Assembly: GCA_963665975.1 (NCBI GenBank)
Contig: OY762508.1
Coordinates: forward strand, 2,267,353-2,331,352
Source: Rhodothermales bacterium
GTDB lineage: Bacteria; Bacteroidota; Rhodothermia; Rhodothermales; Bin80
Direction: 5' to 3'
DNA: 64,000 nucleotides
Below the pieces are notes generated by a model. The model saw nothing but the letters and a program-made list of their open reading frames with translations. It ran no database searches and was not told the origin of the DNA. Shown here piece after piece: positions 3,778 to 63,238 of the stretch (position 1 is the first letter of the stretch; the number at the start of each line of letters is the position of its first letter). The position numbers were made by a program, and so were the translations under genes.

Positions 3778-4017
3778 ACAGCTGATAGGAGAAGGGTCAC
3801 AATACGTTAGTGGGATGTTCATAGCTTGTCGGGGCAAGCGCCAAGCTTTGCTAATGCGTGTGCATAGGCGTTGTTCGGGAGAGTGAGGGCCGGCGCGGTA
3901 CCTGCCAGAATGCTCCGTCGCCGAGCGAACGTAATGCCACCGGAAATCAGCCGCCGTTACACGGTGCAGTAATCCCATGGCAGGAGCATCGCTAGCCGGG
4001 TCGGAGGCGCTTGAATA

Positions 4018-4116
4018 TACAGAATCGCAGGGCTCCGAGGCGGGAAACAGAGGCAGCCATCCACGGGTTCGGAGCACATTCTTCGAGTGTGGACCTGAAT
4101 GCATGTAGGACGTGGA
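4018..4116 (+). repeat. copy A of the ypdA-leader element (decayed)
   Basis: Core CGGGAAACAGAGGCAGCCATCCACGGGTTCGGAGCACATTCTTCGAGTGTGGAC...GGACGTGG aligns with 7700-7770 and 9833-9910. It is followed by ATG-TAG (4103-4108) and weak ypdA-like codons (TTGAAGCAGAAGCGGAATTG versus ATTGAGGCCAAGCGCAATGG). Confidence 0.5.
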
Positions 4117-4710
4117 AATTTCGGGTGTTGAAGCAGAAGCGGAATTGTTTCCAGTTTCACGATTTAGGGACTCTTGCGGTCTATATTGGCATCAGCTACT
4201 TATCCATCCCTTCTGTCACATATCCGACTGTCGGCGGCGCACGTTGAGGACCCTTCACGTGAGTATCGGTTAGGCTTGTATGCACTCTTGCAGCCTGGCA
4301 TCAGAAGTCAAAAGCGATCCACTTCGTTCACCGTGAACACGACGTGCCACGCCAGGAAATCGTTCAGTCTTAAAACGCTGCTTACTTGACAAATGCACGA
4401 TATAGCGCCAATGAAATCAGTCCTTTCTCAATCAATTGTCACATTTAGTCGTTGGGAAGCCTGATTCGGGAATCAAAATACTCCCCAAGCAGACCCAGAA
4501 AACTTGCGTTGAGGTGGAATTGCCTCTGATAGCTGTGCTTTCGATTTGCTACGACAGCATGGATGTTGGTTCGCAATTGGTCCGGCGGAATTCACAGGTC
4601 GTTGCATGGATATCGGGTGTGTGCACTATCATCGTTTCACCGGCTATCCATTTGCTTGAGGTCAGAGTATCTTAATCTCATTACGGTCGAAAAACTGCAG
4701 CATAGGCATA

Positions 4711-26907: not shown

Positions 26908-29643
26908 CTACGCTGCAACGGGCTCCGTGCTGAGAAAATCGCGCAGGACCCAGTGCAGGATACCGCCGTGGCGGAAGTATGCGACTTCCACCGGAGTGTC
27001 CAGTCGACACTGCGTCGTAAACCGGATCTCGGAGCCGTCGGCTTTCGTAGCGACGACATCCACTGTCTGTCGGGCTTCGAGCGTGTCGTCGAAGAGTATG
27101 TTGAACGTCTCAGTCCCGTCGAGGCCTAACGTGGCGGCGGTTTCTCCGACTTTGTACTCAAGGGGCAGCACGCCCATGCCGATTAGGTTCGACCGGTGAA
27201 TGCGCTCGAAGCTTTCGACGATCACCGCCTTTACGCCGAGAAGCAGTGTTCCCTTGGCGGCCCAATCTCGGCTGGATCCCATACCGTAGTCTTTGCCTCC
27301 GAGAACTACCAGGGGCACCCCGGCCGTCTGATAGCGCATGGAGGCGTCATAGATGGGCATCACCTCGCCACCATTTGGGAAGTATGGAGTGATGCCTCCT
27401 TCGGAACCGGGCACCAATTGGTTCTTGATGCGGATGTTTGCGAATGTCCCACGCATCATCACTTCGTGGTTGCCGCGCCGCGACCCGAAGGAATTAAACG
27501 CGCGCACCTGTACGCCCCGGCTCTTGAGGTACCCGCCAGCCGGGCTGTCTCCGGGAATCGCCCCCGCGGGCGAAATATGGTCGGTTGTCGTAGAGTCGCC
27601 TGCCTTGACGAGCACACGTGCCCCTCGAATAGGTTTTAGGCCCGACACGTCCCGCGAGAGCCCGATAAAGAAGGGAGGTTCGCGGACGTACGTCGAGTCT
27701 TCTGTCCAGGCATAGTTCGAACCTTGGGGGATTTCGATGGCGTTCCATGTGTCGTTGGAAGTCTCGATGCCCTCGTATTCCTTCAGGAACATGGCGGGTG
27801 TGATAGTCTCTGCAATGGTGGCTTTGATTTCTTCGCTTGAGGGCCAGATGTCCCGGAGAAAGACATCGTTGCCTGCAAGATCCTTTCCCAGTGGTTCATG
27901 CATGAGGTCTATGTTGACCGTTCCGGCAAGCGCATAGGCTACTACAAGCGGCGGCGAGGCCAGATAATTGGCTTGCACGAGGGCGTGGATGCGCCCTTCA
28001 AAGTTCCGATTCCCAGACAATACGCCGGCCACGATCATGTTGCTCTCACGGACCGCGTTGGCGACGGGTTCGGGGAGCGGTCCGGAATTGCCAATACACG
28101 TCGTGCATCCGTAGCCGACGAGATCAAAGCCGAGCTGGTTCAAGTAGGGGAGCAGCCCGGCATCGCGCAGATAGTCGGTTACGACCTTTGATCCTGGCGC
28201 CAGACTGGTCTTGATGGTCGGACGGACAGAGAGACCGCGTTCGACCGCTTTCTTCGCCAGCAGGCCTGCCCCGATCATGACGCTCGGATTGCTCGTGTTG
28301 GTGCAACTGGTGATGGCCGCGATTGCGACGTCGCCGTTTCTTAGGGGTACGATCTGCCCTTTTTTGTCTACGAATGATGCGACATGGTCCAACTCTTCCG
28401 CTTTCCGCCCAAACCCTCTGGGACCCACAGGTCCTGTAAAGGAGGCGTGAAACGATCCCTTGAGCCCTGGCACGGCGATCCGGTCCTGTGGCCTCTTTGG
28501 GCCAGCAATGCTTGGCGCAACTTCGCCGAGATCCAGGTCGAGTACGTCCAGATAGTCCGGCTCCGGAGACTCTTGCGACAGAAACAGGCCTTGTTCCTTG
28601 GTGTAGCGCTCGACCATTTCGACCAGATCGCTACTGCGTCCCGTGCGTTGCAGGAAGCGCAAGGTTTCGTCGTCAATCGGGAAGAATCCCATCGTTGCGC
28701 CATACTCCGGCGCCATGTTGCTGATGGTTGCACGGTCGGGCACGCTCAGCGCGGATACTCCCGGACCGAAGAATTCGACGAAGCGGCCCACGACTCCGTA
28801 GCTGCGAAGGATTTCGGTGACGGTAAGCACGAGGTCGGTGGCCGTCGCCCCTTCGGGGAGGGCGCCATTCAGGCGAAAGCCTACGACTTCCGGCATGAGC
28901 ATATAGATCGGCTGCCCGAGCATGACCGCTTCCGCTTCGATGCCGCCTACGCCCCAGCCCATCACACCAAGGCCGTTGATCATGGTCGTGTGGCTGTCGG
29001 TGCCAACGAGTGAGTCCGGGTAGGCTACCGGCAAGCCATCCTCTTCACGCGTCCATACGCACCGCGCCACGTATTCGAGGTTTACCTGGTGGCAGATGCC
29101 GCTGGCGGGCGGCACCACAAAAAAGTTGTCGAATGCCTGCTGGCCCCAGCGCAGGAATTCGTAGCGTTCTCTGTTGCGACGGAATTCGATTTCCGAGTTG
29201 AGCCGCAGTGCCTCCTGTATGCCATAGTGGTCGACTTGCACGCTGTGGTCGATAATCAGGTGGACGGGCACCCGCGGATTAATGGCGTTTGGATCACCGC
29301 CCTCGCGCGCCATTGCCGACCGCATGGCGGCCAGGTCCACCACGGCGGGCACGCCCGTGAAGTCCTGTAGAAGCACGCGGGCCGGGGAGAAGGGAATTTC
29401 CCTTTGTTCGGGGGCGTCTGCGCGATATTGGGCGAGGCTCTCGACATCCTCCTGCGTAACGGTAAATCCGTCACATCCGCGCAGGAGCGCTTCAAGCATG
29501 ATACGGATGGAGAATGGCAGGCGATCTATGGCGAAACCTTGTTTGGCGAGCCGATCGAGCCGATACAGATACGCGGAGCCGGAACCTGTTTCGAATGTGG
29601 TGCGGGCTCCGAAGGGATCATTCTTTCGCCTGGTGGTATCCAT
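26908..29643 (-). CDS. acnA: aconitate hydratase A
   Basis: 911 aa. Motifs seen: [22 protein letters not shown], Fe-S cluster cysteines in [10 protein letters not shown] and [10 protein letters not shown], and the swivel-domain DHISPAG. Confidence 0.95.
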
Positions 29644-29790: not shown

Positions 29791-29863
29791 GGGGCTATAG
29801 CTCAGTTGGTAGAGCGCCTGAATCGCACTCAGGAGGTCAGCGGTTCGACTCCGCTTAGCTCCA
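29791..29863 (+). tRNA. tRNA-Ala (anticodon CGC)
   Basis: Hand-folded cloverleaf GGGGCTA-TA-GCTC-AGTTGGTA-GAGC-G-CCTGA-ATCGCAC-TCAGG-AGGTC-AGCGG-TTCGACT-CCGCT-TAGCTCC-A. It has the G3:U70 alanine identity pair. CCA is not encoded. Confidence 0.9.
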
Positions 29864-30332
29864 CAGGATGGCAGATTTATATTGGGTTGGGGAGTTAGGA
29901 TGATGGTCGCCTCATCGTGCTCCCGCCTGATTCTTAGCACGGGCTTCACGGTAGGTTGAATCGTGCGCGTTCGATATCCGAACTGGCTACCACACTTCTT
30001 AAATTGAGCAGGAAAAGCTAGGGTAGCCAACTAATCCGGCTCTCATTGATCGAGATATCTGGCACGTTCCCGGATGGTACTACCGCCAATCGGGGGTTCG
30101 AACAGCAGGGTTGGCCCAATGATGCCACGTATCCGCGCTGGACATCGGGCAACATCAACGAGAATGTCGAGCACCCAACCATGACACATTGTTGCTGGAA
30201 GGATCGAACTTGGGGTATTTCAAGGATGGGGCATTGCGGCAATTTTCTTATCACAGGTGTCAACGGATTTTCCAGCATGAAGCTACACCGAGGCGTGAAC
30301 ATCATGCAGAGATAGGCTTGGCGTCTAACGTA

Positions 30333-30348
30333 CTCTGATTGATCAGAG
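30333..30348. promoter_or_regulatory. perfect 7-bp inverted repeat CTCTGAT-TG-ATCAGAG upstream of darT (candidate operator)
   Basis: Read directly, about 100 nt upstream of the darT start. It is immediately followed by a second small inverted repeat, CTTCC-N6-GGAAG (30351-30366). Confidence 0.25.
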
Positions 30349-30449
30349 CTCTTCCTATTCGGGAAGCTAACGAGGAGGATGTGCCGTCAATGATCGTCTG
30401 CAACACCAAGTTCTGCCCGTTTATGACTTAATCAGATTCCCCTAAGTTG

Positions 30450-31103
30450 ATGAAGCTAGAGTTCAGCACAGAGAAAGCCCTGATCTTTAGAATTACGCAT
30501 ATTAATAATGTGCCTTGGATTCTGGAGAATGGGTTGCACTGTTCGAATTCAGAACAATTAGACCCATCCTTTGAGAGTATAGGGAATCCAGAACTGATAA
30601 CTAAACGCCGAACACGAGCCGTTACCATTCCACCTCACGGAAGTCTTTCCAATTATATTTCATTTTATTTCACGCCTTTTTCAATGATGATGTATAATAT
30701 AGTGACTGGCTGGGCGGGGATTAGGCAACGGTCGAATTCAGAAATCGTGATAATGACAACGTCTTTGCAGGAACTGGCCAAGAACGGGATCGCGGTGGTG
30801 TACACGGATAGGCATGCTTATCTGCAAACGGCGCGATTTTTCTCATCGATGAATGATCTCGACAATCTTGCTTGGGAGCTCTGGGAGGCAAGGGATTTCA
30901 AACGTGATTTTGACAATCCAGAAAAGACAGATCGATACCAAGCTGAAGCACTTATTCATAAGCACTTGCCTATTGAGTTTTTGTCGTGTATTGCGTGCAG
31001 TAATGAAGACACAGCACGGACCCTTCAGGGAATGAAGAAGTTAGCAGGAGTTGAACTGGAGATCGTCACACAACCGGACTGGTACTTCAAATGCTGTCGT
31101 TGA
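30450..31103 (+). CDS. darT: DarT, DUF4433-family ssDNA ADP-ribosyltransferase toxin
   Basis: ORF 30447..31103. The sequence is colinear with DarT hallmarks as I remember them: IFRITHINNVPWILENGL, YISFYFTPFSMMMYNI, VYTDRHAY, DRYQAEALIHKHLP (catalytic Glu context) and the C-terminal QPDWYF. Confidence 0.85.
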   Translation: MKLEFSTEKALIFRITHINNVPWILENGLHCSNSEQLDPSFESIGNPELITKRRTRAVTIPPHGSLSNYISFYFTPFSMMMYNIVTGWAGIRQRSNSEIVIMTTSLQELAKNGIAVVYTDRHAYLQTARFFSSMNDLDNLAWELWEARDFKRDFDNPEKTDRYQAEALIHKHLPIEFLSCIACSNEDTARTLQGMKKLAGVELEIVTQPDWYFKCCR

Positions 31104-32188
31104 GGGAGGGAAATTTGCTCGACGCCGACGTTGAGGCAGTCGTTAACACCGTTAACACTGTGGGTGTCATGGGCAAGGGGATCGCTCTCATGTTCAAGGA
31201 GCGATACCCCAGAAATTTCGCCGCTTATGCGCGCGCCTGCAAGAGCGGTGAGGTTCGAATCGGCAGGATATTCGCTACGGATACCGAAGACCTGTTCGGT
31301 CCCAGGTGGATTCTTAACTTCCCGACAAAGAACCACTGGCGCGCGAGAACTCGCTTGGAATGGGTAGAGCAAGGATTGGAGGATCTCGTTCGAGTTATCA
31401 AAGAGAAGAATATCCGTTCGATCGCTGTTCCGCCGCTCGGGTGCGGCAATGGTCGTCTTGACTGGCGCGACGTGAAGCCGCTGATCATTGCTGCGCTGGA
31501 GGATATTGACGGTCTCGACGCGTTTGTCTACTCTCCAACAACAGAGTATCAGAATGTTGTCAAGCCGAGAGGCGTCCAAAAACTCACCCCAGCTCGTGCG
31601 CTCATGGCGGAGATGGTGCGCAGGTACTGTTTGATCGGCATCGATTGTTCGATCCTAGAAGTGCAGAAGCTTGCTTGGTTTATTGATCGGGGCATCAGGC
31701 GCATGGGCTTTGGTAATCTGCTGAGATTGAATTTCAGCGCAAATAAGTACGGTCCCTACTCACATAATCTCACAAAACTACTCGACAACCTTGATGGCAG
31801 TTACCTACGATGCAGAAAGCGTCTGGCTGACGCTAAGCCGGACGACTTCATCTGGTTTAATGAGGAAAAGAAGGATTTCGTAAAGGCCTACCTGAACTCG
31901 ATGGATAAGCCTGATAAGCGTGTTGTGGAATGGGTTTCTGACACCATTGACGGATTTGAGTCACCGTATGGCATGGAACTCTTAGGGACTGTTGATTGGC
32001 TTGTAGAAAGGGAAGGGACTGAACCCACAACTGCTCGCATCTTGGAGGAACTTCACAACTGGTTAGGGGGAGAGGCTGCTGGTCGCCGCAAGGCGCGCAT
32101 CTTCGATCAGCGTTCGATCGATCTGGCACTGGATCAACTGAGGCGCGCAAGACTCAATAATACCGCATTGTTTGGGACATCTTGTTGA
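31091..32188 (+). CDS. darG: DarG, macrodomain antitoxin (ADP-ribosyl glycohydrolase) with a C-terminal DarT-associated domain
   Basis: 365 aa. It overlaps darT by 13 nt. The N-terminal macrodomain is GNLLDADVEAVVNTVNTVGVMGKGIALMFKERYP ... IAVPPLGCGNGRLDW. Confidence 0.85.
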   Translation: MLSLREGNLLDADVEAVVNTVNTVGVMGKGIALMFKERYPRNFAAYARACKSGEVRIGRIFATDTEDLFGPRWILNFPTKNHWRARTRLEWVEQGLEDLVRVIKEKNIRSIAVPPLGCGNGRLDWRDVKPLIIAALEDIDGLDAFVYSPTTEYQNVVKPRGVQKLTPARALMAEMVRRYCLIGIDCSILEVQKLAWFIDRGIRRMGFGNLLRLNFSANKYGPYSHNLTKLLDNLDGSYLRCRKRLADAKPDDFIWFNEEKKDFVKAYLNSMDKPDKRVVEWVSDTIDGFESPYGMELLGTVDWLVEREGTEPTTARILEELHNWLGGEAAGRRKARIFDQRSIDLALDQLRRARLNNTALFGTSC

Positions 32189-32914
32189 TGAACTTACTTG
32201 GGAGAAAACGCGTCAGTTCAACGCGAGACTAAAGGGGGCACATTGGAGTCCCTGTGATCGCCGGTACGGGGTTCAGGGCCGTTGATCACAGCTTCCATCG
32301 TGGCAATTCCTTTATTGTAGACGCACGATGGAGCCGGACTGAGACCCGGAACGAAGCGACGGAAGAGCTACTGAATCCTACGGATCAGCGAGCCAAGCCC
32401 TGACCCTGCTATACTTCCCTGCACACGGCTTTATCCGCTCTTAGATATTCATCAGTAGTCATAGTCTGTCCTGCTTTGCACACCATCCTTGCATCACGGC
32501 CCCTTTTTCGACGGGAATAACTCCGCGTCTTCAGTAATATGGGCCCATCTCGCCACCCTTACGGCCCAACCTGCCTCTTGAGAGGTATCAGTTGGGTTGT
32601 TTGAGCCACTGGCAGGGCTGTCCCATACGGGCGGACAGTCGAGATTCGCGATGACAGATTCGAGATTGCTCGGCGTTCACACGTTCCGGCCCGCATGGGC
32701 TCAGAGCCTCCCATTCAGCCCGTTAACCAACGGGGCTTCACACCTTGTCGTTACCTATATAATATGCTTTGATCGCTACCTACTGGGTGACAAGTGGTGC
32801 GGTATAACAGGACTCTAGGTTCAGCGAATGTTACGTTGTCGTTTGATGTCTTGCCCTATCTAGAAACGAAAGCACCTCATGTGAACTCGACTTGTTTCTT
32901 GTTCTACTATACTA

Positions 32915-33418
32915 TTACGGGGCGTCCCACGGTTTCCAACGGGGTATCCAACGTGGCACGTTTGCCTTGTAACGCCGAAAACTGTCGCCGAACCGCTTTT
33001 CAAGGCCAGGCTCCTCTACCAATAAGAAGAAGACTGTGCAGAGCAGAAAAAAGACGCACATCCAACCAAGTAAGTACCATGAGCCCAGGAGTACCGATTC
33101 GGCCGCGAGCAAGAGAAGCACGCCCGTAATCATGGGATTGCGGACATATCGGTAGGGTCCTCGGATCACCAGTTTCGTCGGCGGTGCCCATGGCGCAGGC
33201 GTACCCTTGCCAGTCGTCCAAAACAGGCGTACAGTCCGGACAGCAAGTGTGAAACCGAAAACCGCCAACAGCAGGCCGACCCAGAAACGGGATTGTGATG
33301 GGTCTGCCGGTATTACAGCTCCCGGCTTGTCACTCCACAGCCAAAGCACCACACCCGGAATATAAACGAGGGCTGTGCCCGGAAGGATGAATATGGCCTT
33401 GATCAATTCACGTCTCAT
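32915..33418 (-). CDS. isoprenylcysteine carboxyl methyltransferase (ICMT)/phospholipid methyltransferase-family membrane protein
   Basis: 167 aa with about 4 hydrophobic helices. It has the signature LVIRGPYRYVRNPMITGVLLLLAAE ... EEPGLEKRFGDSFRRYKANVPRW. Confidence 0.75.
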   Translation of the reverse strand: MRRELIKAIFILPGTALVYIPGVVLWLWSDKPGAVIPADPSQSRFWVGLLLAVFGFTLAVRTVRLFWTTGKGTPAPWAPPTKLVIRGPYRYVRNPMITGVLLLLAAESVLLGSWYLLGWMCVFFLLCTVFFLLVEEPGLEKRFGDSFRRYKANVPRWIPRWKPWDAP

Positions 33419-33439
33419 AATGTCCTTAGTGCAACGTTT

Positions 33440-33718
33440 TTTTGGACTCCACCAGACCTTGTCTCTTCAAGTAGTGCTTGCTAATCCATTGCATACTCTC
33501 GAGCCTGTTCCAGTGTTTTGCCGAAGATATTGGGTGTGCGGTTCGCTTGTTCCAGCCGCACACTGATTTCCTCGTTTGCTCAGCCGGGAACGTACTGGCT
33601 GTTATTTATGCTCAGTGCTGCCTGACTCACCGTTTTCAGTCCTTGATCGTTCGCCGGAGACGATCTCTAACACGACACTGGTCTTGAGGTCTGCAGAAAA
33701 GGAGGGACGTTTTGCCAT
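33440..33718 (-). pseudogene. decayed IS3-family orfA (HTH transposase) remnant
   Basis: Hand translation of the reverse strand from ATG 33718 gives MAKRPSFSADLKTSVVLEIVSGERS, then stop and frameshift. A second frame continues ...LKTVSQAALSINNSQYVPG*ANEEISVRLEQANRTPNIFGKTLEQAREYAMD. This resembles the IS3/IS911 OrfA layout (KR-x-FS-x-E-x-K ... leucine-zipper tail). No orfB is present. Confidence 0.4.
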
Positions 33719-33944
33719 GGTACATGTCCTGATTTGGTGATCGAAAATCTACTATTTCCTGCTAAGCAATGTGTCCTGGGAAAAAGAACCACTACAAACT
33801 GCAACTTGCCCACGAGCAACCTGCGGATCATGCAACGGCCCGTTTCAACAAAAGCGGGCAGCTAGCGCATGGCCATTTCGCAATTGACTCGGCTGGTATT
33901 GATCCCGAGCCAACACGAACCCGGCCGCAATACATACGAGCACG

Positions 33945-34745
33945 CTAACCGGATCGCCGGGATCTGCGGTCGCGATCCGTGCGGCCCGTGGTGGCATCTG
34001 AAAGATCCAGGCCAATGCCAAAGGTCGCTTGATGCCCTTCGCTACCAGGAGAGATTGCAAGCATGAGCTGATTGCCGGTCCGACGGAAAATGCCGTCGTT
34101 GGGGTTTCGGGTACTGCGCGCGCCACGTGCTGCATACGGCGGCTGGGCATGCACCTGATCGGTTAGTGCGTCGTCGAAGTAGAGTTGCGAAGTGAACTCG
34201 TAGGCGTTGGTTTGCGCTACCTGCGTGCGGATCTTGAAATGGATGTGCACCGCACGGCCCCTATACCAACCCGGATAAATTGTCGTGAATCGCGCCGCGC
34301 CGTGTTTATCGGTAAGCTGATATCCACGAAGGAATTTCTGGCTACTCAGGTTCCCTCCTGCACTCCGATCCCGAAATGCCGAGTATCGGCCATCGGCATC
34401 GCATTGCCAAATGTCCACTCTGGCGCCAGGTAGCGGTGCACACTCTTGGTTGTCAACCCGGGAAACCTGGAATGTCAATTGTAGCGGCAAGCCAGGCATG
34501 GGGGTTCCAGTCGAAGGCTCTGTTCGAATATCGGACCGGTCAAGTTCGTGATCGGTAAAGAAGGGTCCCTCGGTCTGCTCAGGACGTACGACGCAGGATG
34601 GCAACGGTACCCCACTCGCGAAAGCCAACCGGTTACCTGCGCGGTCGCCGGATATTGCCAGTAAGGCGGCCCCAGCCGCGCCGATGACCTGTATGATCTC
34701 GCGTCGGCTCAATATCCTGCCGACCGGCATATCGTCCAAATCCAT
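33945..34745 (-). CDS. intradiol ring-cleavage dioxygenase family protein, Tat-signal
   Basis: ORF 33945..34802. The likely start is MDLDDMPVGRILSRREIIQVIGAAGAALLA (34745). Motifs seen: PEQTEGPFF, ARVDIWQCDADGRYS, YPGWYRGRAVHIHFKI. Confidence 0.8.
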   Translation of the reverse strand: MDLDDMPVGRILSRREIIQVIGAAGAALLAISGDRAGNRLAFASGVPLPSCVVRPEQTEGPFFTDHELDRSDIRTEPSTGTPMPGLPLQLTFQVSRVDNQECAPLPGARVDIWQCDADGRYSAFRDRSAGGNLSSQKFLRGYQLTDKHGAARFTTIYPGWYRGRAVHIHFKIRTQVAQTNAYEFTSQLYFDDALTDQVHAQPPYAARGARSTRNPNDGIFRRTGNQLMLAISPGSEGHQATFGIGLDLSDATTGRTDRDRRSRRSG

Positions 34746-34877
34746 GATTTCTCGCGGTGTTGGTTCGCCTGGGCAGGTATATGCCGCCGGTGGCGACAAC
34801 ATAAAGTCGAGACAGAGTCTTGGGATATAGACGAGTCTTCAGATCAGGACATTCCGTATACCCCAAGCAGATCCTCG

Positions 34878-36212
34878 TCATACCCTCCAGGGACCGCGCA
34901 TGGGACGCGTGAGCAGGGCCGAAGCCTCGGCATCGCCAATGATCTCTTCCCGCTTTGGGTCCCAGGTCAGGGAGCGGCCCAACCGTATGGAGATCTCGGA
35001 GAGAAGGCAGGCGGTTAGCGCACTGTGGCCTATTTCGACATCGCAGATCGGGCGCTGGCGCGTCTTTACACAGTTGAGGAAGTCCCTCCTGTGATCATCA
35101 CTCCTATACAGGTGCGTGTCGCTTGCTTTCATTTCCAGGCTTAGCAAACGCTCGTCCGAGGCCCAGATGTCTCTTCTATTGACGCCTACCCAGCCTTCGG
35201 TGCCAATAAACTGTACCATGCCCTGGTGAGGGCCTTCCTTCTTGATGACGGGAATGTCTCCGTCATAGAGGAGGATCAGTTCGCTCTCGTCCGTCTCCGA
35301 AGCGGTGATGACCTTGATCGGGCCACTGCCGTCCTGCCCCAATCCCCAGTGGGCAATGTCGAAGTTGTGGGCACCCCAGTCGCTGATATGCCCGGCGGAA
35401 TAGGGGCGCCATGCGCGCCAGGTGCCCGTCTCGGCATTGTAACCCCCGCTAACCCTTTCCGGGTGGTAGGGTGCCTGTGGGGCGTTGCCGAGCCACAGTT
35501 CGTAGAGGAATCCATCCGGCACGGGCTCCGGGCCCAGCGGGCACGGTTTGGAAATCCCGCCGACCCGCGCATAAACCTTCTGGATATCACCCAGATACCC
35601 ATTGCGCGCGAGTTCACAGGCATGACGAAACAATGCATCTGAGCGCTGCTGACTGCCGGTCTGGAACACGCGGTCGTACTTGCGAACGGCGCGGACCATC
35701 TTGCGTCCCTCATAGATTGTTCTCGCAAGTGGCTTTTCGCTGTACATGTCCTTCTTGGCCCGTGCGGCAGCGATGGCCATATACGCATGCCAGTGATCGG
35801 GCAAGGCCAGGCACACCGCGTCAATATCGTCTCGCTCCAGCACCTGCCAGAAGAACGCATAGGCGTCGCAGCCCTGAAATGTGGCGTCCGCGCCGCGCTC
35901 GGTATAGGTGTCGTCCACGAATTGGCGCGCTGGCTCCCTACCCTTCATGCCACGCCCTGCGTAGTTATCGCCAGCCTCGTTTACGTCACACACTGCAAGC
36001 ACCTGCACATCCGGCTTTTCGATAAAGCCCCGCAGGTTGCTCATTCCCATGCTGCCCATCCCGATGAAGCCCATCGTAATGCGGTCACTGGGCGCGGTGA
36101 AGCCTCCACGTCCGAGCGCCGAAGCCGGAATGACCGTGGGAAGCGCCGCAGCGCCGGCAAAAAGCCCCATGCGCTTGACAAATGAACGCCGGTTGAGAAA
36201 ACGGTTAGTCAT
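34878..36212 (-). CDS. Gfo/Idh/MocA family oxidoreductase with a twin-arginine signal
   Basis: 444 aa. The N-terminus is MTNRFLNRRSFVKRMGLFAGAAALP. The Rossmann motif is GFIGMGSMG. It has the EKPLA catalytic-region motif. Confidence 0.85.
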   Translation of the reverse strand: MTNRFLNRRSFVKRMGLFAGAAALPTVIPASALGRGGFTAPSDRITMGFIGMGSMGMSNLRGFIEKPDVQVLAVCDVNEAGDNYAGRGMKGREPARQFVDDTYTERGADATFQGCDAYAFFWQVLERDDIDAVCLALPDHWHAYMAIAAARAKKDMYSEKPLARTIYEGRKMVRAVRKYDRVFQTGSQQRSDALFRHACELARNGYLGDIQKVYARVGGISKPCPLGPEPVPDGFLYELWLGNAPQAPYHPERVSGGYNAETGTWRAWRPYSAGHISDWGAHNFDIAHWGLGQDGSGPIKVITASETDESELILLYDGDIPVIKKEGPHQGMVQFIGTEGWVGVNRRDIWASDERLLSLEMKASDTHLYRSDDHRRDFLNCVKTRQRPICDVEIGHSALTACLLSEISIRLGRSLTWDPKREEIIGDAEASALLTRPMRGPWRV

Positions 36213-46117: not shown

Positions 46118-48121
46118 CTATTGCTGTCCCACTGGAGTAAGACCAGAGCCCAGCCTGGCATAGCTCAAGCCAAATCCGAATGGAAAGAGTGGATCTGCAC
46201 TGTCGAACGGCACGTCCTCCAATTGCTCCCGGACCGCACGCATGGAGGACGGCATCTCAAACGGAAGACGTCCCGAGGGCTCAAGTTTTCCAAATACGGC
46301 ATCCAGGACTACTTCATCCGATGCCCCGAAATTGGCCAGAATTCCCGCGGCGCTCTCCGCTATTTCCGGGATTACGGCCGGGCGATCGAGGTAGATGTCT
46401 ACTATCGTGGGGAGGGCCTGAGTGATCGAAAGTATCTGTTCCAGTTCTTGCCCCTTGAAATCAAGATCTCCCTGATGGAACAGGCCCTCAAGTATGCTGT
46501 TGCCGCGCGGCGGATCGTATGGCGCATGGACTCTGAGCAGTGCCACAGTGGCCGCGGCGGGGTCGCCAGTTACCGTAGCGTAGCGGGCCGCTACACTGCT
46601 GTCTACATTTTGTATATAGAGCCGCTCTCCTGCCCCGAGAGGCAAAATCGGACCACGGCCCATGTCCGCATTCTTCAGTAGCACAATCGATGCCTGCTGC
46701 GCCAATCGCCCCGCCTCCATGAAGGTGGCAGATCCGACTACACTACTAGCAGCACTCTCGTTGACGAATGGATCGTCAAAGAGTCCGAGCAGGAACTTGT
46801 CTCCAAGCAGGCGGCTCACGGACCTGTCCAGGCGCTCTTCCTCCACCCTGCCTGTTTCTACCAGCTCAACAATCCATTCCGGATTGGATTCTCCGCCGAA
46901 CAAATCAATCCCTGCATTCAGCGCCTTCTCGACCCGGTCAACAGGTAACAGGTCTTCCACCCCCCATCCCGGCGACTCGAGGAGGGTGCGGCCCAGTACA
47001 CGCTTGCTGCTGAGCACAGCCCAGTCTGTGCTGATGACACCCTCATATCCCATTTTGTTGCGCAGCAGGTCGGTTACGATTTCGTGGCTGAAAGCAAAGC
47101 CCACTTTCTCTTCCGTAATGCCCACGCCCACACCGTAACTCACCATGATCTGCGCAGTGTTTGCCTCCATGGCGCCCTCCACAAACGGCGCTACATGATA
47201 GTCGAACCTGCCGCCCGGATAGACCTGATCCTTGCCATAGGAGAAGTGCGCTTCCCACCCGTCATCCTGTGGCCCTGCTCCGGGGAAATGCTTGGCCATC
47301 GTTGCCACACTCTCGGTGCCGAGTGACGAACCTTGCAGTCCGCGGATGTACGCGCGACTCATGCGGGTTGTCAGGTCTGCGTCTTCACCGAAGGTGCCAA
47401 ATATGCGTGACCAGCGCGGTTCCGTCGCCAGATCCATCATCGGATGAAGAGCGAGCCGAATACCTACAGCCATGTATTCCTGCCGTGCGATGTCACCGAA
47501 CACCTCCACCAATTGCGTATCACGCGTTGCCGCAAGCCCAATAGGCTCCGGCCAATGGGAAAAACCACCAGCGAACATGGTCGCATCCGGACTGCTCGGA
47601 TAGCCATGCCTCGGATCGGAGCCAATGGTTACGGGGATGCCAAGCCGAGTGCGTTCTGCGAGCTTCTGCACGCTATTGTGCCACTTCGCCATCGAGGCCG
47701 GGTCACTTCCCTGCATGATGTTGAAATGATTCATGTGGCGGCGCACAATCATCGTAGAATTGGTGGGAATCATGAACGTGAAGGGATTCTTCGGCGTCGG
47801 CCGCTCCTGGAGGGTGCCGTCCGGCCGCATGGCAATCATATTGATAAACATCATCCCCGCCTTCTCCTCGAGAGTCATCCTCGAGAGTATATCCTGCACG
47901 CGCTCCCCCACCGGCGCCGCTGCATTTTCGTACGGATCCATCACGCCGTTCTTGTTCAGATCCCGGTACTGTGTGCCGTCAGCCATTCTGACGGGGGCCT
48001 CCGGACCCAGGCGTGCCATCGCGTTTTCGGCAAGAACAGCATAGTAGGTGTAGAAGCCAAGTACCGCGGCACTTGCCAATGCGAGAAGACTGAGCATGAC
48101 TATGGTAATGCGACGCATCAT
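46118..48121 (-). CDS. glycoside hydrolase family 3 (beta-glucosidase/beta-hexosaminidase-like)
   Basis: ORF 46118..48151. The signal/anchor from 48121 is MMRRITIVMLSLLALASAAVLG. GH3 N-domain motifs are GIPVTIGSDPRHG, KHFPGAGP and ISTDW. A C-terminal alpha/beta sandwich is present. Confidence 0.9.
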   Translation of the reverse strand: MMRRITIVMLSLLALASAAVLGFYTYYAVLAENAMARLGPEAPVRMADGTQYRDLNKNGVMDPYENAAAPVGERVQDILSRMTLEEKAGMMFINMIAMRPDGTLQERPTPKNPFTFMIPTNSTMIVRRHMNHFNIMQGSDPASMAKWHNSVQKLAERTRLGIPVTIGSDPRHGYPSSPDATMFAGGFSHWPEPIGLAATRDTQLVEVFGDIARQEYMAVGIRLALHPMMDLATEPRWSRIFGTFGEDADLTTRMSRAYIRGLQGSSLGTESVATMAKHFPGAGPQDDGWEAHFSYGKDQVYPGGRFDYHVAPFVEGAMEANTAQIMVSYGVGVGITEEKVGFAFSHEIVTDLLRNKMGYEGVISTDWAVLSSKRVLGRTLLESPGWGVEDLLPVDRVEKALNAGIDLFGGESNPEWIVELVETGRVEEERLDRSVSRLLGDKFLLGLFDDPFVNESAASSVVGSATFMEAGRLAQQASIVLLKNADMGRGPILPLGAGERLYIQNVDSSVAARYATVTGDPAAATVALLRVHAPYDPPRGNSILEGLFHQGDLDFKGQELEQILSITQALPTIVDIYLDRPAVIPEIAESAAGILANFGASDEVVLDAVFGKLEPSGRLPFEMPSSMRAVREQLEDVPFDSADPLFPFGFGLSYARLGSGLTPVGQQ

Positions 48122-48334
48122 TACTGTACCTCCGAATTGGCACAATGCCATTGGCCTGCAGGAATAAGCTGCGGAACAGAATAAACGTATAGCCCAGACT
48201 TGTCAATAAGGCGGTAGACGAAGATGCATATGGCACAGATTAATATCTAATAAACAATTCTTTATATATAATTCCGGTAATTCAGTCGGATTATAGCTAC
48301 ACACTGTCAAGCACAGGCACTGTACTTCACGCGC

Positions 48335-48529
48335 GTGGGTCCTCGCAAGGTGGTCGGAGAATTTGATGGCGGGCGCATGCCTTTGGATGTTGGCGCACTG
48401 CTCTTGCGGGAGATCAATGAGAAGCGTAACATCTTGGCTCGTATAGCTGAGTGTTTCCCCGGCCGCCGAAGAAAATATGGAGACATCGAAAGAGGATGCG
48501 CCTCTTATTTCTCAAATGCGCTCCCCTAA
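48335..48529 (+). mobile_element. N-terminal fragment of a DDE transposase (IS1380/IS4-type), truncated
   Basis: 64-aa ORF. FDGGRMPLDVGALLLREINEKRNILARIAECFPGRRR matches the F-x-GG-x-L-x-SD-x-G-x-LLLRE-x-D-x-x-LG-x-x-x-R-x-A-x-C pattern of such transposase N-termini as I recall them. No catalytic domain follows. The flank is AT-rich. Confidence 0.45.
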
Positions 48530-48562
48530 TGTTGGGATCGCCACGTGAAATATCCATGAGCC

Positions 48563-48624
48563 CTATAAGCGTGTTATACGCGAATCTATAAGCGCGCGCA
48601 TAAAATCTATAAGCGCGCATAGCA
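48563..48624. repeat. three tandem imperfect 21-23-bp repeats (CTATAAGCG-N-ATA...)
   Basis: Read directly: CTATAAGCGTGTTATACGCGAAT / CTATAAGCGCGCGCATAAAAT / CTATAAGCGCGCATAGCATT, starting at 48563, 48586 and 48607. Confidence 0.5.
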
Positions 48625-50275
48625 TTATGAGGCGAGTTCATAGAAAGCCCATCTACGCCCTCCACGCATGACCAGTTTGCCTGAATCGACCATCCGTCTT
48701 AGGAGGCGAGAAGCTTGATCTCGTCCTGTGCTGCATAAGTGTGTCACGTCCTGGTTACGGATGCGACCGTGTTGCGCAACATAATTGAGCACCATGTGCT
48801 CCTGTTGCGTGCGGTCGAATCCGGCCTGCCGTGTGTAGCCCTCGGGCTTTCCCAGATACTGGTAAATCGCTTGACTGAGTGTGTATGTCCGCCCCCGCTT
48901 AACGCCATGTGGCTGGATTAGCCCTGCTTCCACGAGTCGCTCTAACACGGAACGCGCTGCTCCCGAATCTTTCTGTATAAGCGCAGCGACCTCTCTCATG
49001 TCGCTACGACGCGTCGCCCTGAGGTGCGAGAGGACGAGCAGGCTATCGAGTGGCATGGAACTACCCATGCTGTTTTCCTGCTCAATCACCATCCTCAGAA
49101 AATCCAGATCCGCAGCCGCGCAACTCAACTCTACGACGACGCTGGAGGAATTGCTGCGGGCAAAGTTCGGTGCGCGGCGTCCGTAGCGGAGCAGCCCCTG
49201 GTAGATTAGGTCCACACCTCGACCCGTGCGCTCTGCCAACCCAATACGCTTGAAGGCATCGGCCAGCACAGGGTTGCGAGGTTTGGGCTCTACGACTAAC
49301 AAGTTGTCTATTCCCACACCCTCAACGAAGCTGCCGGGGTTACTTACTGTTAACGCTTTCTTTTCCCAACGGATATAGACGGCGCCTAACTGCGTATAGT
49401 CGCGGTGCGTGAGAGTGTTGATCACGGCCTCTCGGAATGCCCGGTGATCCAGTACAGGCACGGATACCCGAAAAGTCCCACCTGCATCTCTTCTTCGACT
49501 ACGCGGGCGCGATAGAACTGGTCGATGTGCTCATAGAGGCGCACGAGTGGCCAGCGATAGAAATCATTGGCGCGGACAGTGGAGCCGTCGAGTTCCTGCA
49601 ATAAGACTTCATGGGAGGGAATGTACGTGCGGAAGGCCCCCTCGTTGCCGATGAGGAGGAAGCCAGCCACCGTAGGAACACGCTTTCCCCCTGCAGTGGA
49701 GGTCAGCCCCAATGCTCCATTCTGGGAATCATCGCTCAGGTCGAGGAGGGCGCGGTCTCCATGATATTGTTCGATGGCCTGCCGAATGCGCTGGCGCTCC
49801 ACGGAGTCGAGATCCCCCAAGGTTGCTTCGATAATCGGAAGCGCGGCATAATCCAACTGTCGCAGGTAGGAAGCCCGTGTGGCAAACTCGTGTGGCAGGA
49901 AAGGGACACACTCGGGCGTTCCATCTGCGCGTGCGCGTCGTCGTTGCAGCATGCGGTCCGAAGTAGCCACAAGTTGCTCGGAACGGGGCACATGGATCGA
50001 GGCCACGCGCGTTCCTTCTTCTTCGATCAATTCTGTCCGGACACTCAGCGATGGGACAGTCCGGCGAGCAATAATGGCTGCCAGTTGCGTGAGATGCTCG
50101 TGTTCCGGAAGCAACCCAGTTATGCTTCTGTCGTCTTCGACGCCCAGATATAGTGTTCCGCCTTCGGTGTTGGCCGAGCACAAGGCAGCCAAGTCCAAGT
50201 CGCGGTCTGACAGTTTTTCCTGTCACTCTTGAACTCAATTGTCAATGACTCTTTGTCTGGAATACGTCGTGGCAT
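48625..50275 (-). pseudogene. AlbA_2 (Schlafen-like) + HATPase_c_4 + wHTH protein (COG2865, 'RecG-like' regulator), disrupted by two frameshifts
   Basis: Three consecutive reverse-strand ORFs in different frames read colinearly: MPRRIPDKESLTIEFKSDRK (from 50275), then DLAALCSANTEGGTLYLGVEDD ... (49422..50198), then PVLDHRAFREAVINTLTHRDY ... GRGVDLIYQG ... wHTH (48625..49461). The frame changes occur at an A5 run (about 50213-50217) and a T4 run (about 49456-49459). Confidence 0.7.
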
Positions 50276-51842: not shown

Positions 51843-53675
51843 TTAGTAGATGGTTGCAGAAAGTCCTATGCGCCCAAGGCGTGGAGGCATCGGGTAAGAG
51901 GGCATGACCTCGTATCGGAGATTGAAGACGTTTTCGGCGGCAGCGCTCACCGTAAGCGCAACATTCCCAACACGCTGGTCCAACTCCAGGCTGCCGTCAA
52001 TAAGGGTGAACGGGACAAGGGACGAAGAGCCGTCTGTAGTGATAAAGCGTCTGCCTACGTAGCGCGCCGAGGCGCTAAGCCGTGCAAATCCCAGGTGTAG
52101 CGAGAGGTGGCTCTTGCCCTGATGGCGGGGCAGGAGTCGCACATAGGACGGCGCGGTCTGATCACTCCAGTCACGCGCGTCGGTCAGCGTATAGAAGAAT
52201 CCACCGGAGAGGTGCGCCATCTCCCACCGCCACTCGTAAGAAGTCTCCAGACCACGTGAATGGATCCGTCCCAGGTTCACCGGCGCCCAGTAGCCGCCTT
52301 CTGACGGTAGCCACTGAATCTGGTCCGTTACTCGGGATAGAAACGCAGATGCCTCAAGCCTGCCACCCCGGTGTTCCAGCCGGAGGCCCAGATCCGTACT
52401 CCAGCCATGCTCGGGCCTGAGGTCACTCCTGCCACCCGGTTGCCAGAATCGGTCATTGAAGGTGGGATTACGGAAGAATCGCCCGGCAGAAGACTTCAGA
52501 TGTAACGCCGGCCGGGACAGCAGGCGCAGGTTCAGTCCCAGGCGAGGGTTGAATTGCACAAGGAGGGGCTCACCCGGACGGTGGTATGCGTCAGCGCGGA
52601 GAGCAGGATAGAGGCGCAGACTCCCGGCGCGAATAGTTGCTGAAGCAAAGGCAGCCGCATACTGTTCGGAAGCGTTGCTTTGCAGCCTCGGATGACGGGC
52701 ACGGGCATAGCCCTGCGAAAGCCCCGTAATCAGGTCGAAGTTTTCTCCTGACCGTAGTCGGACATCGGCGTCTAACGACGAGACAAACGTTCTTCCCGTA
52801 TTATCCAGGTCAAGTTGCGGATTGACATAGCGCAGTGATCCCGACTGTGCAAGCCCGCTCAGACGCAGCCTGCCCAGGTTTCCGCCCGCGAGTACACGCA
52901 GGTGTCTGTCCCATTGCCGCTCATCGTCAGCCAGGATGGAGCCGATTGTCGGCAGCCCACGCTCCGAATCATTATACCACGCGGTCATGTGCCACGTCTC
53001 CATGGCGAAGGCGGAATACAGCGACAGCCGACGCCGATCAGCGCCTGTCCGGCGCACCTCCTGCGGTGGAAACAGGCTATTGTTGAGGTATGGCCAGTCG
53101 GCGCGAGCGGCATTTGCTTCGACCGCTACAACACCGGAGACGCTGCCAAGCTGGCCGGATGCCAACGCCGAGCCGGTACGCTCTCCGTACGCTCCGGCGA
53201 TTCCCTTGACCGTGAGGAGCCTTTCGCCGGGACGGATCGTGCGCAGGTTCACCACGCCGCCCAGCGCATCGGTACCGTAGAGCGCGGATCCCACGCCGTG
53301 CATCACCTCCACCGATTGCAACAGGACGGTGGGTAGCAGCGACAGGTCGAGTTGCCCAAGTTGCGGACTTGCAATACGGTGTCCGTCCAGTAGTACCAGC
53401 GTCTGCGAGGCCGTGCTGCCACGAAGGGACATGGAGGCAAGTCCACCCCCGCCATAGCGCCGAATGAACACGCCGGAGCGCCGCGCAAGCAATTCCGCCA
53501 TGTTCTGCGCGGCAGCTTCACTCATGGATTCGGCGTCCAACACGGTGACACGTGCCGGTGCCTCCAGGAGATGAGTGCGGAGTCGCGTGGCGGTAACCGT
53601 GACGGTCGGCAGACGGAGCGTGGTGTCTGCGAGTGACGGCTGCAAACCCTGCAGAAGGAGAAAAATGCGCAGCAT
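51843..53675 (-). CDS. TonB-dependent receptor (BtuB-like, under a cobalamin riboswitch)
   Basis: 610 aa. The plug is VTVLDAESM ... GGLASMSLRGSTASQTLVLLDGHRI ... VEVMHGVGSALYGTDALGGVVNL. The barrel ends GLSATIY. The cobalamin riboswitch lies directly upstream. Confidence 0.85.
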   Translation of the reverse strand: MLRIFLLLQGLQPSLADTTLRLPTVTVTATRLRTHLLEAPARVTVLDAESMSEAAAQNMAELLARRSGVFIRRYGGGGLASMSLRGSTASQTLVLLDGHRIASPQLGQLDLSLLPTVLLQSVEVMHGVGSALYGTDALGGVVNLRTIRPGERLLTVKGIAGAYGERTGSALASGQLGSVSGVVAVEANAARADWPYLNNSLFPPQEVRRTGADRRRLSLYSAFAMETWHMTAWYNDSERGLPTIGSILADDERQWDRHLRVLAGGNLGRLRLSGLAQSGSLRYVNPQLDLDNTGRTFVSSLDADVRLRSGENFDLITGLSQGYARARHPRLQSNASEQYAAAFASATIRAGSLRLYPALRADAYHRPGEPLLVQFNPRLGLNLRLLSRPALHLKSSAGRFFRNPTFNDRFWQPGGRSDLRPEHGWSTDLGLRLEHRGGRLEASAFLSRVTDQIQWLPSEGGYWAPVNLGRIHSRGLETSYEWRWEMAHLSGGFFYTLTDARDWSDQTAPSYVRLLPRHQGKSHLSLHLGFARLSASARYVGRRFITTDGSSSLVPFTLIDGSLELDQRVGNVALTVSAAAENVFNLRYEVMPSYPMPPRLGRIGLSATIY

Positions 53676-53711: not shown

Positions 53712-53854
53712 CTGTCACCACGCGGAAACATCCATGCGTCAGGGGACACCATGCCTCGAACCTCAATTCCCGGAGGTGATCGGCTAATCCAGCCTTCGGC
53801 AGATCTCCTGACTCGCCACCTGCATGTTTCCACAGAAACACGCTGTCGGGGATA

Positions 53855-53990
53855 CAGCATACAGCCTTCCCATCGTTAGACAGTGACTGCGTGCTACCAA
53901 CATCCCCGAACTTCGGGTGGCCTACAGTTGCGGGTACAGTTCCGGCATGTCCTCAACAGCGGAGGCACCGGATTCCCTCTTAGCCCCGAC
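53855..53990 (-). promoter_or_regulatory. cobalamin (B12) riboswitch aptamer
   Basis: The reverse strand reads GUCGGGGCUAAGAGGGAAUCCGGUGCC...GCCGGAACUGUACCCGCAACUGUAGG ... GCAGUCACUGUCUAACGAUGGGAAGGCUGU...CCCCGAC. The conserved AGGGAA-CCGGUG, CCCGCAACUGUA and (G)CCACUG...GGGAAGGC blocks are present. P1 is GUCGGGG/CCCCGAC. Confidence 0.85.
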
Positions 53991-54234
53991 CCTTACACGG
54001 GTTTGGGGACCGATAGGCCTATGGAAAGGAACTCGGCCAAACATAATCGTCCAAGGTGCAGATGTCAAGGAAAAAGCACCCCTTTGTCAGAGGAATTATT
54101 CGAATGTCATCGAAAGAGAGCAGTCAAGTGCTGTAAATTCTCCTTTCATAGACCAGGTCTACATTGCTTGCTGATCACGCCTGTTGCGCCTACTATTACT
54201 GCCGGGCAAATACGTACTCAAATTCATAGGTCCC

Positions 54235-54654
54235 ATGAAAACAACGTTAACAGCAACCATAGCCATTATCCTTGCACTGGCCGTTTCGGCTGCGTACCAG
54301 CAGCCTCAGGCGCTGGAAGCCTGTCCCGAAGGCACGGATCCGTACGTGGAATACCGGCTCTTCTTCGGCCGCAGCACTGCGGACGGCACGGTGTCGGATG
54401 CCGACTGGGATGCATTCCTGGCCAGCGAGGTTACAAGCAGATTTCCGGAAGGGTTGACCGTTCTGGATGCCTACGGGCAGTGGCAGAGTAGGTTAAACGA
54501 GTTGCTCCGCGAACATAGCAAGATCGTGCTGATTGTGGCGCCGCCAGGGGGCTTAGCTAAGGAGCACGCCAAGTCGATAGCCGATGCGTACAAGAGTCGG
54601 TTCGATCAAGAATCCGTCCTGTTGGTGGTAACGGATGTTTGTGCTGCCTTCTAA
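54235..54654 (+). CDS. DUF3574-like secreted protein
   Basis: ORF 54184..54654. The signal peptide from ATG 54235 is MKTTLTATIAIILALAVSAAY. YRLFFGRSTADGTVSDADWDAFLASEVTSRFPEGLTVLDAYGQW resembles DUF3574 as I remember it. Confidence 0.55.
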   Translation: MKTTLTATIAIILALAVSAAYQQPQALEACPEGTDPYVEYRLFFGRSTADGTVSDADWDAFLASEVTSRFPEGLTVLDAYGQWQSRLNELLREHSKIVLIVAPPGGLAKEHAKSIADAYKSRFDQESVLLVVTDVCAAF

Positions 54655-62956: not shown

Positions 62957-63046
62957 GGGATCAGGGTGAATTACGGAGCACGAAAAGTTGCTGGGCAAGG
63001 TACAATGTCACACTCACAGTCGCACGCACGGCAAGCATGCAAAAAA

Positions 63047-63150
63047 GAAGGGTAAGCTATCCGCATCGCGTCGCTACAACCTCCTACCGCTGCTGCCTTC
63101 CGGCCCTGACGGAGTTAAGAGGGAGCTGACCGTGCGGGACTCACCCTTCC
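63047..63150 (-). ncRNA. ffs: small (4.5S-type) signal recognition particle RNA
   Basis: The reverse strand reads GGAAGGGUGAGUCCCGCA...CCGUCAGGGCCGGAAGGCAGCAGCGGUAGGAGG...UGCGGAUAGCUUACCCUUC followed by UUUUUU. It has the domain-IV signature GUCAGG-CCGGAAGG-AGCAGC. The 5' GAAGGGUGAG pairs with the 3' CUUACCCUUC. Confidence 0.8.
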
Positions 63151-63238
63151 CGCTGAAGTAACGTAACGTCTGCGTGTAGGTTTCTATGAAAGCAATGGCC
63201 AGGCATGCTCGGCGCAGGACTCCCCTGGTCGTAGTCTG

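Follow-up and report, generated by a model that had tools for sequence, protein, structure and literature searches.

A 64,000-nucleotide stretch of a Rhodothermales bacterium genome (contig OY762508.1, positions 2,267,353 to 2,331,352; hereafter, the window) carries at positions 30450–32188 what is very probably an intact two-gene DarTG2 toxin–antitoxin module, a reading to which we give a probability of about 0.92. Its first gene, darT, is predicted to encode a toxin that ADP-ribosylates thymidine in single-stranded DNA (ssDNA), and the second, darG, the cognate macrodomain antitoxin. The initial annotation had called the pair a DarT–DarG system of known type and not a new one, and this held, as it is an ordinary DarTG pair with all published catalytic residues kept. 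The assignment to DarTG2 is the only refinement on that identification. The module is made up of the following parts, listed with the evidence for each, including matches in the Protein Data Bank (PDB) and open reading frame (ORF) coordinates.

30450–31103 (+), darT, predicted DarT2-type ssDNA thymidine ADP-ribosyltransferase toxin, 217 amino acids (Pfam, PADLOC, NCBIfam, PDB, residues)
31091–31103 (+), darT/darG overlap of 13 nucleotides, …AAATGCTGTCGTTGA (sequence and ORF coordinates)
31091–32188 (+), darG, DarG antitoxin, 365 amino acids (PADLOC DarG, NCBIfam antitoxin_DarG)
31091–31540 (+), DarG N-terminal macrodomain, residues 1–150, the predicted DNA ADP-ribosylglycohydrolase part (Pfam Macro, PDB 5M3I and 5M31, residues)
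31646–32140 (+), predicted DarG C-terminal DarT-binding domain, residues 186–350 (phmmer match to 7YK3_B)

The toxin matched its family end to end in three profile collections, i.e., Pfam PF14487 (E = 6e-53, 180 bits against a cut-off of 22.5, profile positions 1–201 of 201), the PADLOC DarT model (5e-60, full length) and the NCBIfam equivalog NF048013 toxin_DarT (219 bits against a cut-off of 150, profile positions 1–204 of 204). These full-length matches, above the curated cut-offs, bear out the DUF4433/DarT-like identity proposed for it. Among proteins of known structure, it was most similar to DarT of Thermus sp. 2.9 (7OMV series, 2.6e-24), followed by M. tuberculosis DarT (7YK3_A, 3.8e-11) and the protein from enteropathogenic Escherichia coli (EPEC; 7OMU, 3e-06). 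In the alignment, R53, Y73, M80, H122 and E166 correspond to R51, Y71, M78, H119 and E160 of Thermus DarT, and T16 and N20 to T15 and N19, which contact nicotinamide adenine dinucleotide (NAD+); the offset in Thermus numbering was cross-checked on H13, I14, T15 and N19 as listed in PMC9967889. In the Thermus enzyme, R51 has two roles, polarising NAD+ together with Y71 and abstracting the N3 proton; the thymine is locked by H119, M78 acts to stabilise the oxocarbenium ion, and E160 is indispensable (PMC9967889). R53 and M80 are invariant in 31 DarT homologues.

All five motifs listed for the toxin in the initial annotation (ITHINN, YISFYFTP, TDRHAY, QAEALI and a C-terminal WYF) are present in the translated protein, the last of them four residues short of the C-terminus (…DWYFKCCR). 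The His of TDRHAY (H122) aligns to the thymine-coordinating H119, and the Glu of QAEALI (E166) to the E160 column. That column holds Ala in all three crystallised chains (7OMV, 7YK3_A and 7OMU), which places the QAEALI Glu on the catalytic position; a catalytic-null substitution of this glutamate has been described (E160A in Thermus; PMC11543638), and DarT E160A is non-toxic (PMC5179494). An alignment with Thermus and M. tuberculosis DarT had been put forward as the check on the active site, and in it both the catalytic Glu and the His are kept.

DarG matched Pfam Macro PF01661 (E = 7e-23), the PADLOC DarG model (4.3e-119, profile positions 1–327 of 329) and the NCBIfam equivalog NF048014 antitoxin_DarG (419 bits against a cut-off of 250, profile positions 3–338 of 338), and the profile searches against Pfam and PADLOC that had been recommended were thus significant for both proteins. 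The macrodomain is closest to M. tuberculosis 5M3I (2e-55, the best PDB match) and T. aquaticus 5M31 (2.5e-53). K80, N22, K29 and G119 are kept, at numbering that coincides with that of T. aquaticus DarG (TaqDarG), and so are N8, L9, T20, T79, H82, W83, G117, N120 and G121. Mutation of K80, N22, K29 or G119 inactivates or impairs TaqDarG, and the list of binding residues comes from the same study (PMC5179494).

Residues 186–350 of DarG match the C-terminal domain of M. tuberculosis DarG that was co-crystallised with DarT (7YK3_B, E = 3.5e-13, phmmer), which identifies the long C-terminal extension noted for the macrodomain protein as the known DarT-binding domain. The PADLOC and NCBIfam models of full-length DarG extend over this region too. 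With both the macrodomain and the DarT-binding domain matched, the protein does fit the canonical DarTG architecture. The C-terminal domain is mildly acidic (net charge −2, isoelectric point 5.8), a value that is uninformative on ssDNA mimicry.

The ORF list and the sequence confirmed that the two genes overlap by 13 nucleotides (31091–31103), an arrangement between the darT stop region and the darG start that suggests co-transcription and translational coupling. The first ORF, as listed, spans 30447–31103 (+) and opens with TTG at 30447, the ATG at 30450 being the next codon. Translation from the ATG gives the 217-residue protein, and the TTG is an alternative start one codon upstream. The 217-residue DarT and the 365-residue DarG are exactly the forms found in the public protein collection. 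Both ORFs cover their profiles from end to end with no frameshift and no internal stop.

Two subfamilies of DarTG are distinguished in the literature. In DarTG2, the antitoxin is a macrodomain DarG, thymidine is modified, and DarT has His119 and Tyr71; in DarTG1, the antitoxin has a NADAR domain, guanosine is modified, and DarT has Asn104 and Ser63 (PMC11543638). In the window, DarT has His122 at the base-coordinating position and Tyr73 where the nicotinamide is stacked, i.e., the DarT2 states, and a macrodomain DarG is encoded on the same strand directly downstream of darT, overlapping it by the 13 nucleotides given above. No match to a NADAR domain was found for either protein in Pfam or NCBIfam, and a profile built from the 31 DarT homologues found only DarT2 structures, even at E ≤ 10. 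Based on this evidence, the module is classified as DarTG2, with thymidine as its predicted target.

Work on characterised members of the family (PMC5179494, PMC9967889, PMC11543638, PMC11481870) suggests how the pair may operate. With NAD+ as its substrate, DarT would link one ADP-ribose to the N3 of a thymidine within a short ssDNA motif, and this modification would block replication and halt growth. The DarG macrodomain would hydrolyse the thymidine–ADP-ribose bond through the catalytic Lys80, and the C-terminal domain would bind DarT and occlude its DNA-binding site. Phage infection may upset the balance between DarT and DarG, and the freed DarT would then modify phage and host DNA, giving an abortive-infection type of defence. 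We infer the enzymatic activity, target motif, toxicity and rescue, and anti-phage role of the module, as well as the mode and timing of its acquisition. DarTG systems, including those of the macrodomain type, protect against phages outside their native context (PMC11481870, PMC11543638), and an anti-phage role is proposed for this module only by analogy.

The module is compositionally foreign to its surroundings. The G+C content (GC) is 0.440 for darT (background sd 0.029, z = −4.8) and 0.490 for darT and darG together (background sd 0.021, z = −4.2). The background lies at 0.579, and in neither case does any background window of equal size go as low. The lowest-GC stretch of 654 nucleotides in the 64 kb is 30420–31073. 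At third codon positions, the GC of darT is 0.47, compared with 0.56–0.72 in other ORFs of at least 150 amino acids. The lower-GC patch noted in the initial annotation is therefore real and far beyond the variation of the window itself (z = −4.8 for darT). The next-lowest minima after the darT region lie at 4071–4724 (0.476) and 676–1329 (0.483).

The tRNA gene beside the module, and the remaining parts of the segment that sets the window apart from related genomes, are as follows.

29791–29864 (+), tRNA-Ala (anticodon CGC), a conserved landmark where likeness to relatives stops (ARAGORN; Rfam tRNA, 69 bits)
29865–30449 (no strand assigned), spacer of 585 nucleotides between the tRNA and darT, recognisable gene absent, GC 0.506
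32189–34877 (no strand assigned), rest of the window-specific segment, from darG to a conserved Gfo/Idh/MocA gene (Pfam)
32915–33418 (−), PEMT/ICMT-like membrane methyltransferase (Pfam), GC 0.556
33945–34802 (−), Dioxygenase_C-domain protein (Pfam), GC 0.585

ARAGORN and Rfam both support the tRNA that had been reported beside the module, and darT starts 586 nucleotides past its 3' end. Related loci (n = 80) were collected using the neighbouring aconitase gene (26908–29643, −) as the anchor; its best relatives are Rhodothermales metagenome-assembled genomes, with up to 78% identity. The junction between aconitase and tRNA-Ala(CGC) is conserved in six relatives, and neither DarT nor DarG was found at any of the 80 aconitase-anchored loci. 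In one of the relatives, the complete Rhodothermales chromosome L001, collinearity with the window extends from ~19.2 kb to aconitase and resumes at the Gfo/Idh/MocA gene (34878–36212), whereas across 29865–34878 this chromosome has unrelated genes, including one for a TonB-dependent receptor, in place of DarTG and the PEMT/ICMT-like and Dioxygenase_C genes of the window. The Gfo/Idh/MocA homologue of L001 (OZ244626.1) is itself split, with residues 1–403 encoded at 1320–2528 and residues 401–442 at 4688–4813. The ~2.2-kb insertion between them (2528–4688) encodes a 632-residue DDE_Tnp_1 transposase with a sigma-70 region-4 helix-turn-helix, indicating an insertion sequence.

Horizontal acquisition is well supported by the compositional deviation together with the absence of the module from related loci. 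Comparison with the two nearest homologous DarTG loci, both metagenomic (L081 and L082), points to the unit concerned: similarity to them is restricted to window positions 30447–32154 (tblastx and blastn) and the flanks are not shared, so that the shared unit is a bare two-gene cassette. Most likely, such a cassette entered a Rhodothermales-like chromosome by horizontal transfer, at a variable site directly 3' of tRNA-Ala(CGC). The horizontal acquisition proposed in the initial annotation thus stands as far as composition and absence from relatives are concerned, but the mobility genes and att repeats that might have accompanied it were not found. A classical integrative element inserted at the tRNA was considered and is unsupported, as both an integrase and an att repeat of the tRNA 3' end are absent.

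On the left, the spacer at 29865–30449 contains two ORFs without a Pfam match (30046–30315, +; 30018–30305, −); it matched no Rfam family and does not resemble the sequences that flank other DarTG loci. Presumably, it holds the darTG promoter and 5' region. At the equivalent position upstream of darT, the homologous locus L081 has an HTH_3 regulator. On the right, a non-coding gap of 726 nucleotides separates darG from the PEMT-like gene. The PEMT/ICMT-like and Dioxygenase_C genes, like the rest of 32189–34877, have no counterpart in L001 or the 80 loci, and the GC of individual features in this part ranges from 0.50 to 0.585. We treat it as context that is not demonstrably part of the DarTG acquisition, and the right-hand boundary of the acquired DNA lies somewhere between 32189 and 34878. 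Inside the gap, positions 32679–32817 (−) gave an Rfam group-II-D1D4-4 match below the gathering score (24.2 bits against 49; E = 0.003–0.013, model positions 1–138), with no D5/D6 match and no reverse-transcriptase ORF nearby. At most, this is a degraded group II intron fragment; it may mark earlier mobile-element activity at this variable site, or it may be a chance match.

No observation contradicts the assignment, though several caveats attach to it. The neighbourhood is one of housekeeping genes (aconitase, RecO and oxidoreductases) and not a defence island. When the sequence was scanned for promoters and terminators, matches were no more numerous than in shuffled controls, and no sigma-70-like site was reported directly upstream of darT. 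Between 29865 and 34878, there is no integrase-sized ORF, tblastx against the integrase and resolvase of L081 found no similarity in the window, the 3' end of the tRNA does not recur as an att-type repeat even when three mismatches are allowed, and no convincing direct or inverted repeats bound the segment. Nucleotide similarity to the six relatives stops exactly at 29864, the tRNA 3' end, and this is weak evidence of acquisition, since intergenic DNA would in any case be expected to have diverged at this distance. The proteins are also outliers of their clade. At columns conserved in at least 90% of 30 close homologues of each protein, DarT differs at 11 of 98 and DarG at 20 of 201. The DarT changes include D141A (30870–30872) and L145W (30882–30884), where all 30 homologues have Asp and Leu, and among the DarG changes is G122R (31454–31456) in the ADP-ribose-binding loop (residues 117–122), where Gly is found in all 30 homologues and in all solved DarGs. 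DarT may accordingly be attenuated or of altered specificity.

Of the alternatives to phage defence, the one that survives best, though we hold it to be somewhat unlikely, is that the same DarTG2 module acts as a chromosomal regulator of growth and replication, or is a selfish addiction cassette kept by lethal loss. M. tuberculosis provides the precedent, as its DarT modifies ssDNA at the origin and coordinates growth (PMC12170906) and its DarG is essential (PMC7689832), and the isolation of the module among housekeeping genes, with no neighbouring defence system in PADLOC, is in keeping with such a role. However, DarTG protects against phages when moved from its native context (PMC11481870, PMC11543638), the closest homologues are in mobile or defence contexts, and the patchy horizontal distribution is easier to reconcile with accessory defence or selfish cargo than with a regulator present throughout the lineage. 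The regulatory or addictive roles and the defence role are compatible and not mutually exclusive.

The substitutions could also be read as a shift in function, with a DarT of changed ssDNA motif or attenuated activity that co-evolved with an atypical DarG (G122R, a TARG1-like loop). From the sequences, this appears doubtful, but not far-fetched. A141 and W145 of DarT lie between H122 and E166, in a stretch that we infer to be the ADP-ribosylating turn-turn (ARTT) DNA-binding loop, and the Asp at the position equivalent to 141 is present in Thermus and M. tuberculosis DarT as well. None of the changed conserved columns is a residue with published functional evidence. Human TARG1 has an Arg at the position aligned to R122 of DarG (GCGLDRL in TARG1 vs GCGNGRL), which makes R122 compatible with activity. 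If true, the module would hold a DNA ADP-ribosyltransferase retuned in nature, which might be of use in genome editing based on DarT2.

Decay is improbable by comparison. On that reading, the frames are intact while the activity of the toxin, the antitoxin or both is lost or weakened, and the cassette is a leftover, without function, of an old insertion. In its favour, no other member of the clade is as divergent as this pair (11/98 and 20/201 conserved columns changed, with D141A, L145W and the G122R loop change among them), no promoter was detected, and the absence of mobility genes and att scars suggests that the insertion is not recent. Against this, neither ORF is truncated with respect to its profile or interrupted by a frameshift or stop, each residue with published functional evidence is kept, and Arg also stands at the G122 position in human TARG1, which is active. 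Moreover, the antitoxin is intact and has kept all its catalytic residues, as would be expected under selection by an active toxin, and the strongly atypical GC is still present, which argues against long amelioration. Last, a guanosine-specific DarTG1-type system, or another ADP-ribosyltransferase (ART) toxin (e.g., a protein-targeting one) beside a generic macrodomain, has a negligible chance of being correct: the Pfam DarT fold and most catalytic residues are common to DarT1 and DarT2 (PMC11543638), so the Pfam match alone does not discriminate, but His122 and Tyr73 stand where DarT1 has Asn104 and Ser63, the partner is a macrodomain DarG with a DarT2-binding C-terminal domain and without NADAR, and only DarT2 structures were detected by the profile at E ≤ 10.

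An intact DarTG2 module therefore remains our reading of the locus, which documents a complete module in a Rhodothermales-like (Bacteroidota-related) genome and is mostly a matter of clean annotation. It adds a moderately divergent DarT/DarG pair to a known family, and an example of a bare two-gene defence or toxin–antitoxin cassette that lies directly 3' of a tRNA gene and lacks mobility genes. No biological question is opened or settled by the module. DarT2 now serves as an effector for genome editing (PMC13368585), and there is some practical interest in divergent variants of it, possibly with other motif preferences or lower toxicity.

Across the window, 46 greedily chosen ORFs were scanned with PADLOC. 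Only DarT and DarG scored strongly, in agreement with the view that they are the clearest defence-type cargo in the window, and no other recognised defence system was found among these ORFs. Three weak matches (mad2 and Aga_SIR2-PNTD) were rejected as generic domains, namely a S-adenosylmethionine (SAM)-methyltransferase fold at 1071–1889 and a HATPase_c_4 protein at 48625–49461. The latter, a HATPase_c_4/AlkZ-like protein on the minus strand, overlaps a Schlafen AlbA_2 protein (49422–50198, −) by 40 nucleotides in a different frame, and the two resemble one AlbA_2/HATPase_c_4 protein split by a frameshift. This pair gave the weak PADLOC matches to SIR2-PNTD models associated with prokaryotic Argonaute (pAgo), and it adjoins a low-GC patch at 48032–48685 (GC 0.479).

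Two RNA features were detected further along. A cobalamin riboswitch at 53781–54029 (−; 80 bits, gathering score 31.5) lies upstream of a minus-strand ORF (51843–53675). It overlaps an apparent ORF of low third-position GC at 53883–54491 (+), which is probably not a gene, because it has no Pfam or PADLOC match. A small signal recognition particle RNA of the Bacteroidales type at 63046–63153 (−; 92.8 bits, gathering score 55.2) fits a Bacteroidota/Rhodothermales-related host.

Compared with known systems, the pair is moderately divergent. Both proteins form singleton clusters at 90% identity, and the best identities in a collection of 5.8 billion proteins are at most 66% for DarT and 71% for DarG. 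Among homologues with source names, DarG reaches 68% (Zhengella) and DarT 59–62% (Patescibacteria and Gammaproteobacteria); for comparison, the aconitase of the window shares 78% with its nearest Rhodothermales counterpart. The nearest homologues of both proteins are the metagenomic pairs P0002/P0125 (from L081) and P0048/P0234 (from L082), whose clade shares 64–66% (DarT) and 64–71% (DarG) identity with the window proteins. At both loci, DarT is followed directly by a 359-residue Macro protein, and nucleotide identity to the window is ~67–69% over the two genes. The window DarT differs from this clade by a four-residue tail (KCCR) past the consensus end WYF, and DarG by its 365 residues compared with 359. 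The surroundings differ as well: DarTG of L081 lies beside an integrase, a resolvase and RES-Xre, and that of L082 beside a type I restriction–modification HsdR and transposases, unlike DarTG in the window.

The DarTG systems of Thermus aquaticus and Thermus sp. 2.9 (7OMV–7ON0, 5M31 and 5M3E) have the same darT-then-darG order and domain architecture. Thermus DarT aligns with the window protein from end to end, with R51, Y71, M78, H119 and E160 conserved, and the Thermus DarG macrodomain (E = 2.5e-53) has K80, N22, K29, G119, H82 and W83 at identical numbering. However, the two DarTs share only 33% identity over 201 aligned positions, and the target motif of the Thermus enzyme is TNTC. H13 and H65 of Thermus DarT are replaced by R14 and S67 in the window protein, at positions that are also variable in the M. 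tuberculosis and EPEC proteins.

For M. tuberculosis DarTG (Rv0059/Rv0060; 7YK3 and 5M3I), similarity extends over DarT (3.8e-11), the macrodomain (2e-55) and the C-terminal domain (3.5e-13), which supports dual neutralisation, enzymatic and by binding. In M. tuberculosis, DarTG is conserved on the chromosome and regulates growth, and its antitoxin is essential (PMC12170906, PMC7689832), whereas the cassette in the window is patchy in distribution and compositionally foreign. DarTG1 systems (DarT1 with NADAR, e.g., E. coli C7) have in common with the window module the ART fold, the Pfam family, the catalytic Arg, Met and Glu, and a toxin-then-antitoxin operon (PMC11543638), but they target guanosine, have Asn and Ser in place of His122 and Tyr73, and are paired with a NADAR hydrolase. 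Human TARG1/OARD1 is distantly homologous to the DarG macrodomain (E ~2e-5), with its catalytic Lys aligned to K80 and the loop Arg in common. This eukaryotic enzyme is a stand-alone protein that lacks both a toxin partner and the C-terminal domain for binding DarT.

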